Source: Escherichia coli (lineage in GTDB: Bacteria > Pseudomonadota > Gammaproteobacteria > Enterobacterales > Enterobacteriaceae). Taken from it: DNA of 64,000 nt. The position numbers were made by a program, and so were the translations under genes. The notes under the pieces are model-generated. The model ran no database searches. It worked only from the letters and a program-made list of their open reading frames with translations, and had not been told where the DNA came from. The stretch lies in assembly GCF_003334405.1 (NCBI RefSeq), contig NZ_QOWM01000001.1; one strand, 5' to 3'. This document shows, piece after piece, positions 20,744-20,759 of the stretch. How positions within the stretch are numbered: the stretch's first letter is position 1; each line of letters begins with the position of its first letter.

Positions 20744-20759
20744 TGTGAAAAGATTCACA
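20744..20759. promoter_or_regulatory. putative CRP site upstream of preT
   Basis: tgtgaaaagattcaca is a perfect TGTGA-N6-TCACA palindrome about 95 nt upstream of the preT start. Confidence 0.5.

Follow-up and report, generated by a model that had tools for sequence, protein, structure and literature searches.

At class I CRP-dependent promoters, CRP is centred at -61.5, as in the lac P1 type, or at -71.5, -82.5 or -92.5. At class II promoters, of which mglBAC is an example, CRP sits at -41.5 over the -35 position, and at the CytR/CRP promoters of the cdd, deoP2 and udp type, CytR bridges two CRP dimers and represses until cytidine is present. The closest described system to the palindrome considered here is the CRP site that RegulonDB lists for yeiTA (preTA) in Escherichia coli K-12. 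That entry is reproduced in Table S4 of Shimada 2011 (PMC3105977) as 'yeiTA, activator, -57.5, TGTGAATCTTTTCACA' (ECK120035029/ECK120035030), and Table 1A of the same study includes yeiT, as preT was formerly called, among the CRP targets that RegulonDB already contained and that genomic SELEX found once more. The corresponding row of Table S3 reads 'yeiS> >yeiTA, yeiT, TGTGAAAAGATTCACA, 2.23195e6' and contains the exact 16-mer, and the SELEX peaks were seen only when cAMP was present (Shimada 2011, PMC3105977).

The window, by which we mean the whole 64,000-nucleotide stretch of E. coli DNA that was analysed, carries the same element between yeiS and the preT-preA operon. The genes around the site, and the site itself, are as follows.

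18183..19418, minus strand: preA (yeiA, b2147), second gene of the operon (open reading frame, with K-12 coordinates mapped)
19412..20650, minus strand: preT (yeiT, b2146), NAD-dependent dihydropyrimidine dehydrogenase subunit, first gene of the operon (open reading frame and annotation)
20744..20759, no strand assigned: cAMP-CRP binding site (sequence, published 16-mer and conservation)
20844..21083, minus strand: yeiS (DUF2542), the upstream gene on the same strand (open reading frame and annotation)
21086-21805, minus strand: sanA (open reading frame listing and annotation of matching E. coli genomes)
21955-22839, minus strand: cdd (open reading frame listing and annotation of matching E. 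coli genomes)

The start of preA overlaps the stop of preT by 7 nt. The stop codon of yeiS occupies 20844-20846, and the CRP site lies downstream of it in the non-coding yeiS-preT spacer of 193 nt, upstream of and co-oriented with preT. A pattern search placed TGTGAAAAGATTCACA at 20744-20759 with all 10 core positions equal to the TGTGA-N6-TCACA consensus; in the window these positions read tgtgaaaagattcaca, and in the sense of preT they read TGTGAATCTTTTCACA, which is palindromic in its two 5-bp half-sites. Counted upstream from the A of the preT ATG (20650), the distance is 94 nt to the near edge of the site and 101.5 nt to its centre. The preliminary description of this DNA, which had reported a perfect palindrome of this type about 95 nt upstream of the preT start, was therefore correct in both respects. 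Perfect matches of this kind are rare, since only 0.03 would be expected in 64 kb from dinucleotide-preserving shuffles and two were found, a number of at least two being reached in 0 of the 100 shuffles. The second match, TGTGAGTGATTTCACA, is at 14068-14083.

Comparison with the RegulonDB entry showed that the two are the same object, with identical 16-mer, flanking genes and orientation. The yeiS-preT intergenic region of K-12 MG1655, where the site has the coordinates NC_000913.3 2233924-2233939, is identical to that of the window, and the 701 bases around the site were matched in 5425 of 5426 complete E. coli genomes. The palindrome is thus the cAMP-CRP activator site that RegulonDB has catalogued for the preT-preA (yeiT-yeiA) promoter since before 2011, and as an element documented and confirmed by genomic SELEX it is not itself new. 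The preliminary description had proposed catabolite control of preT-preA and was unsure whether this was documented; it is, in Shimada 2011 (PMC3105977) and RegulonDB, and the proposal is supported by the RegulonDB listing, by the cAMP dependence of the SELEX signal and by the half-sites conserved at 19 of 19 loci (see below). There is no difference in sequence from the RegulonDB entry, and what is added here is the conservation of the site across genera, together with doubt over the value of -57.5. The cross-genus conservation and the strain polymorphisms described below are new in this analysis and are modest refinements.

A caution given by Shimada 2011 (PMC3105977) is that part of the RegulonDB CRP targets are sequence predictions only. 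Binding of CRP to this site in vitro is documented, and its crp/cya dependence in vivo has the standing of an annotation, namely the word 'activator'. In the accessible literature we found neither crp- or cya-dependent expression of preT nor a CRP ChIP peak; the Crp ChIP-exo supplements examined had no preT or yeiT entry, and a search of the literature for preT, preA or yeiA together with CRP returned no dedicated study of preT regulation. The site sequence is also absent from the supplements of Mendoza-Vargas 2009 (PMC2760140), whose TFBS prediction was considered as a possible source of the RegulonDB entry.

The Mal, Tdc, GlpA and PsuG proteins are CRP-regulated. PreT rises together with them in two proteomic studies, and this co-induction provides circumstantial support for CRP control.

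To compare the site between species, a protein-anchored scan was made with one genome per species, which gave 19 enterobacterial preT loci from E. albertii, E. whittamii, other Escherichia, 13 Citrobacter-type genomes (one of them a metagenome bin labelled Raoultella) and Pseudocitrobacter. A perfect TGTGA-N6-TCACA was present upstream of preT at every one of these loci, at 99.5-271.5 nt from the ATG. In a site-anchored comparison of 20 sequences, 12 of the 16 columns within the site were invariant, compared with 4 of the 45 columns on the upstream side and 5 of the 45 on the downstream side. Similarly, identity between the window and Citrobacter youngae was 0.94 in the site, as against 0.33 over the upstream 45 nt and 0.53 over the downstream 45 nt. 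The gene order sanA-yeiS-preT is common to Escherichia and Citrobacter, though YeiS is only about 62% identical between them, and Pseudocitrobacter has kept the CRP site, yet has no yeiS match upstream. Within E. coli, both half-sites were unchanged in all seven aligned alleles, the sole variation in the site being a T/C polymorphism in its spacer (TGTGAATCYTTTCACA). At the level of sequence, this conservation forms a clear phylogenetic footprint and supports a function for the site.

The sequence, rarity and conservation of the site are established here, and its cAMP-dependent binding in vitro and its RegulonDB listing are established in the literature. The best overall explanation, which we hold with high confidence, is that the palindrome is the cAMP-CRP site of the preT-preA promoter and provides catabolite control. 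When glucose is scarce, the rise in cAMP would lead to a CRP dimer occupying TGTGAATCTTTTCACA, immediately after the yeiS terminator hairpin. Bound there, upstream of the core promoter, CRP would help RNA polymerase to start about 40-47 nt before the preT ATG, presumably acting through the alpha C-terminal domain in the class I manner. In this way catabolite control would extend to the reductive breakdown of pyrimidines (uracil/thymine), as it does to cdd and mglBAC nearby, which are CRP-controlled. Within this scheme we infer to which class the activation belongs, exactly which promoter elements are used and how large the effect is in vivo.

The published start of preT and the promoter elements near it bear on the class of activation, and together with a conserved block they lie between the CRP site and the gene.

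20694..20697, minus strand: preT transcription start region (5' RACE end at 20697; the RegulonDB value of -57.5 implies the A at 20694)
20697..20707, minus strand: candidate -10 elements (hexamer scan)
20714..20725, minus strand: conserved block GCTTAGCCTTAA, 20 nt downstream of the CRP site (anchored comparison of 20 sequences)

By 5' RACE, Mendoza-Vargas 2009 (PMC2760140) placed the 5' end of b2146 47 nt upstream of the ATG, which is position 20697 of the window; the row in the supplement reads 'b2146 -47 Tttactaaacgctcgccttaa' and the mapped start sequence is 'Tttactaaacgc...'. With a TSS 47 nt from the ATG, the CRP site falls upstream of the -35 region. The 5' RACE protocol of that study (PMC2760140) uses homopolymer tailing, and for this reason the leading Ts of the mapped 5' end may be ambiguous. 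The centre of the CRP site is at -54.5 from the mapped TSS, at -57.5 in RegulonDB and at -61.5 when counted from the best -10 element. This best match in the hexamer scan is TATTAT (20702-20697). A second hexamer, TACATT (20707-20702), fits the mapped starts but differs in the majority allele of E. coli.

When the other genomes were compared, TATTAT or TATATT was found at the equivalent of -61.5 in K-12, E. albertii, E. coli E69 and Escherichia sp. E1V33, and at that of -60.5 in E. whittamii. The AT-rich hexamers of Citrobacter would put CRP at about -68 to -72, and those of Citrobacter MGH106, where 12 nt are inserted, at -80.5/-82.5. Because the distance from CRP to the -10 candidates changes in steps of approximately one helical turn, class I activation is favoured, and we regard it as somewhat the better bet. 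In common with class I promoters of the lac P1 type, preT has a single upstream CRP site and a poor -35, its -10 candidate TATTAT would give -61.5, and the shift in distance between genera is of about one helical turn. Unlike these promoters, the published TSS of preT gives -54.5 or -57.5; both values are off the canonical class I phase of -61.5, and the exact phase is unsettled. A generic scan of 20500-21000 called no sigma-70 promoter on the preT strand. Such a null result is typical of activator-dependent promoters.

Two further reports touch the transcription of this region. In Kim 2012, the only TSS attributed to yeiT is supported by 2 reads (NC_000913.2 position 2231827). In the window this signal, which is too weak to build on, falls at about 20878, inside yeiS and upstream of the CRP site, at a distance of 228 nt from the ATG, and it may represent weak read-through or an internal promoter. 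Shimada 2017 reported a sigma-28 SELEX peak inside the yeiT coding region.

The conserved block would allow a different geometry. GCTTAGCCTTAA is the best-conserved stretch downstream of the CRP site, with little or no variation across Escherichia and Citrobacter, and its distance from the site is fixed in Escherichia and Citrobacter, being one base shorter in Citrobacter MGH106; in Pseudocitrobacter the block is partly altered, to GCATAGCCTTGC. Since the block contains TAGCCT (20722-20717), which has A and T at the key positions -11 and -7 and would fall exactly at -12 to -7 for a site at -41.5, preT could be a class II promoter with CRP over the -35 position and transcription starting near 20710. 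However, TAGCCT agrees with TATAAT at only 3 of 6 positions and lacks an extended -10, the reported starts (20697 as mapped, or that implied by -57.5 in RegulonDB) are not near 20710, and the variation of about a helical turn in the distance to the AT-rich -10 candidates points instead to class I. We therefore consider a class II arrangement unlikely, though it is the strongest competitor to class I activation. The class II site of mglBAC, which is the second perfect match in the window (14068-14083, -41.5), is likewise perfect in its core, listed in RegulonDB and recovered by SELEX (Shimada 2011 Table S4, PMC3105977). At mglB, however, CRP overlaps the -35 position, whereas the mapped TSS puts the preT site farther upstream. 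We also weighed a sigma-54 promoter at CCGCACGCTTAGCC and rejected it, there being no GG-N10-GC.

A second explanation for the palindrome concerns not the promoter of preT but the end of yeiS, where RNA folding revealed a further element.

20754..20803, minus strand: terminator-like stem-loop at the 3' end of yeiS (RNA fold)

This stem-loop has a folding energy of -18.6 kcal/mol (z = -5.0), and none of 200 shuffles folded as well. In its outer stem UUCAC pairs with the GUGAA of a CRP half-site, and its U-tract, UCUUUU, is the spacer of the CRP site; as modelled, terminator and activator site would overlap in Escherichia. The hairpin was missed by a generic terminator scan of 20500-21000, its 15-nt loop being greater than the limit of the scan. 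It could accordingly be argued from this strong hairpin, which takes in the GUGAA of the site and is followed by the U-rich spacer, that the palindrome owes its conservation chiefly to its place in the yeiS terminator and that the CRP match is of little regulatory consequence for preTA. The terminator cannot explain the conservation of the site, however, because the hairpin that follows yeiS in Citrobacter has a different sequence and lies further upstream, ending about 25 nt before a palindrome that is still perfect, and because the distal half-site TCACA lies outside the hairpin and has no role in it, yet is invariant. In Pseudocitrobacter the palindrome is also perfect with no yeiS match upstream, and this DNA is bound by cAMP-CRP in vitro (Shimada 2011, PMC3105977). 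A terminator origin of the conservation is thus highly improbable.

Least credible of all, with hardly any probability left to it, is a CytR/CRP promoter, which the pyrimidine-catabolism context and the CytR-regulated cdd about 1.3 kb away in the window might suggest, cdd and deoP2 being likewise CRP-controlled genes of pyrimidine salvage or catabolism; such a tandem-site promoter can be set aside because the second CRP-like site is absent, each of the 19 genomes having only one (at most 2 core mismatches) in the 500 nt upstream of preT, the sole extra TGTGA nearby (20778-20782) having 4 mismatches in its partner half, and RegulonDB giving one site for yeiTA versus two for cdd (Shimada 2011 Table S4, PMC3105977). 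The tandem CRP sites of cdd are at -42.5 and -92.5 and act with CytR, whereas preT has one site, and preT does not show the arrangement in which a CytR operator lies between two CRP sites spaced by about 52 bp.

The cAMP-CRP site is not the only conserved element of the spacer, since an inverted repeat is found close to the start of preT.

20659..20682, minus strand: inverted repeat CCTTAAT-N10-ATTAAGG, overlapping the preT Shine-Dalgarno AAGGAAG (comparison of 14 sequences)

The arms of this repeat were invariant in the 14 sequences, which represent three genera, except for one pairing-compatible C-to-U in one sequence, and the loop varies. A structured RNA at this position was unsupported (-4.5 kcal/mol, z = 0.32, no covariation), and an Rfam scan of 20500-21000 at E <= 1 gave no match. 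It is possible that the repeat is a protein operator or causes a modest occlusion of translation. The block GCTTAGCCTTAA shares GCCTTAA with the repeat at 20676-20683.

In E. coli the yeiS-preT spacer is dimorphic, the allele of the window and K-12 occurring in 1461 genomes and alleles 80-90% identical to it in 3922. Over the spacer (approximately 20640-20850) the alleles are far more divergent than the flanking coding sequence, and the divergence spares the CRP half-sites, the RBS region and GCTTAGCCTTAA, which has one T-to-A in the divergent alleles. In addition, about one third of E. coli genomes, as estimated from an even-step sample, carry an insertion of 127 or 205 bp at approximately 20697/20698, exactly at the mapped TSS. 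The inserted repeat (L004:306-432 and L005:306-510) lies between the promoter and the preT RBS, is also present in E. albertii and other Escherichia, and is a dispersed element with a median of 11 copies per genome, whose core presumably matches ERIC/IRU. From its position, the insertion would be expected either to lengthen the 5' UTR or to alter the promoter. As a speculative proposal to which we give a low probability, GCTTAGCCTTAA and the inverted repeat may be operators of a pyrimidine-responsive regulator, or a translational switch, acting with CRP, and the ERIC-like insertion may lead to lineage-specific expression of preTA and hence to differences between lineages in how gut bacteria inactivate 5-fluorouracil.

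The dihydropyrimidine dehydrogenase of bacteria is PreTA, which inactivates 5-fluorouracil. The relation of the preTA operon of gut bacteria to fluoropyrimidine anticancer drugs is the subject of two preprints (10.1101/820084 and 10.1101/2024.06.04.597471), neither of which mentions CRP, promoters or catabolite control. Catabolite control of preTA is of practical interest because diet and the availability of sugar could modulate inactivation of the drug, and the activation geometry, the conserved blocks and the strain polymorphisms might matter for the effect of preTA on fluoropyrimidine drugs.

Insertions of IS1 were also seen in this region. In several pig and human isolates (e.g. NZ_CP062895.1), IS1 is found at 20822-20832 of the window, between yeiS and the hairpin, and the CRP site is intact. 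In strain EP91B (NZ_CP149810.1), the IS1 junction splits the CRP site in two (TGTGAATCTT|IS1), and preT, which has lost its 5' end, is a pseudogene.
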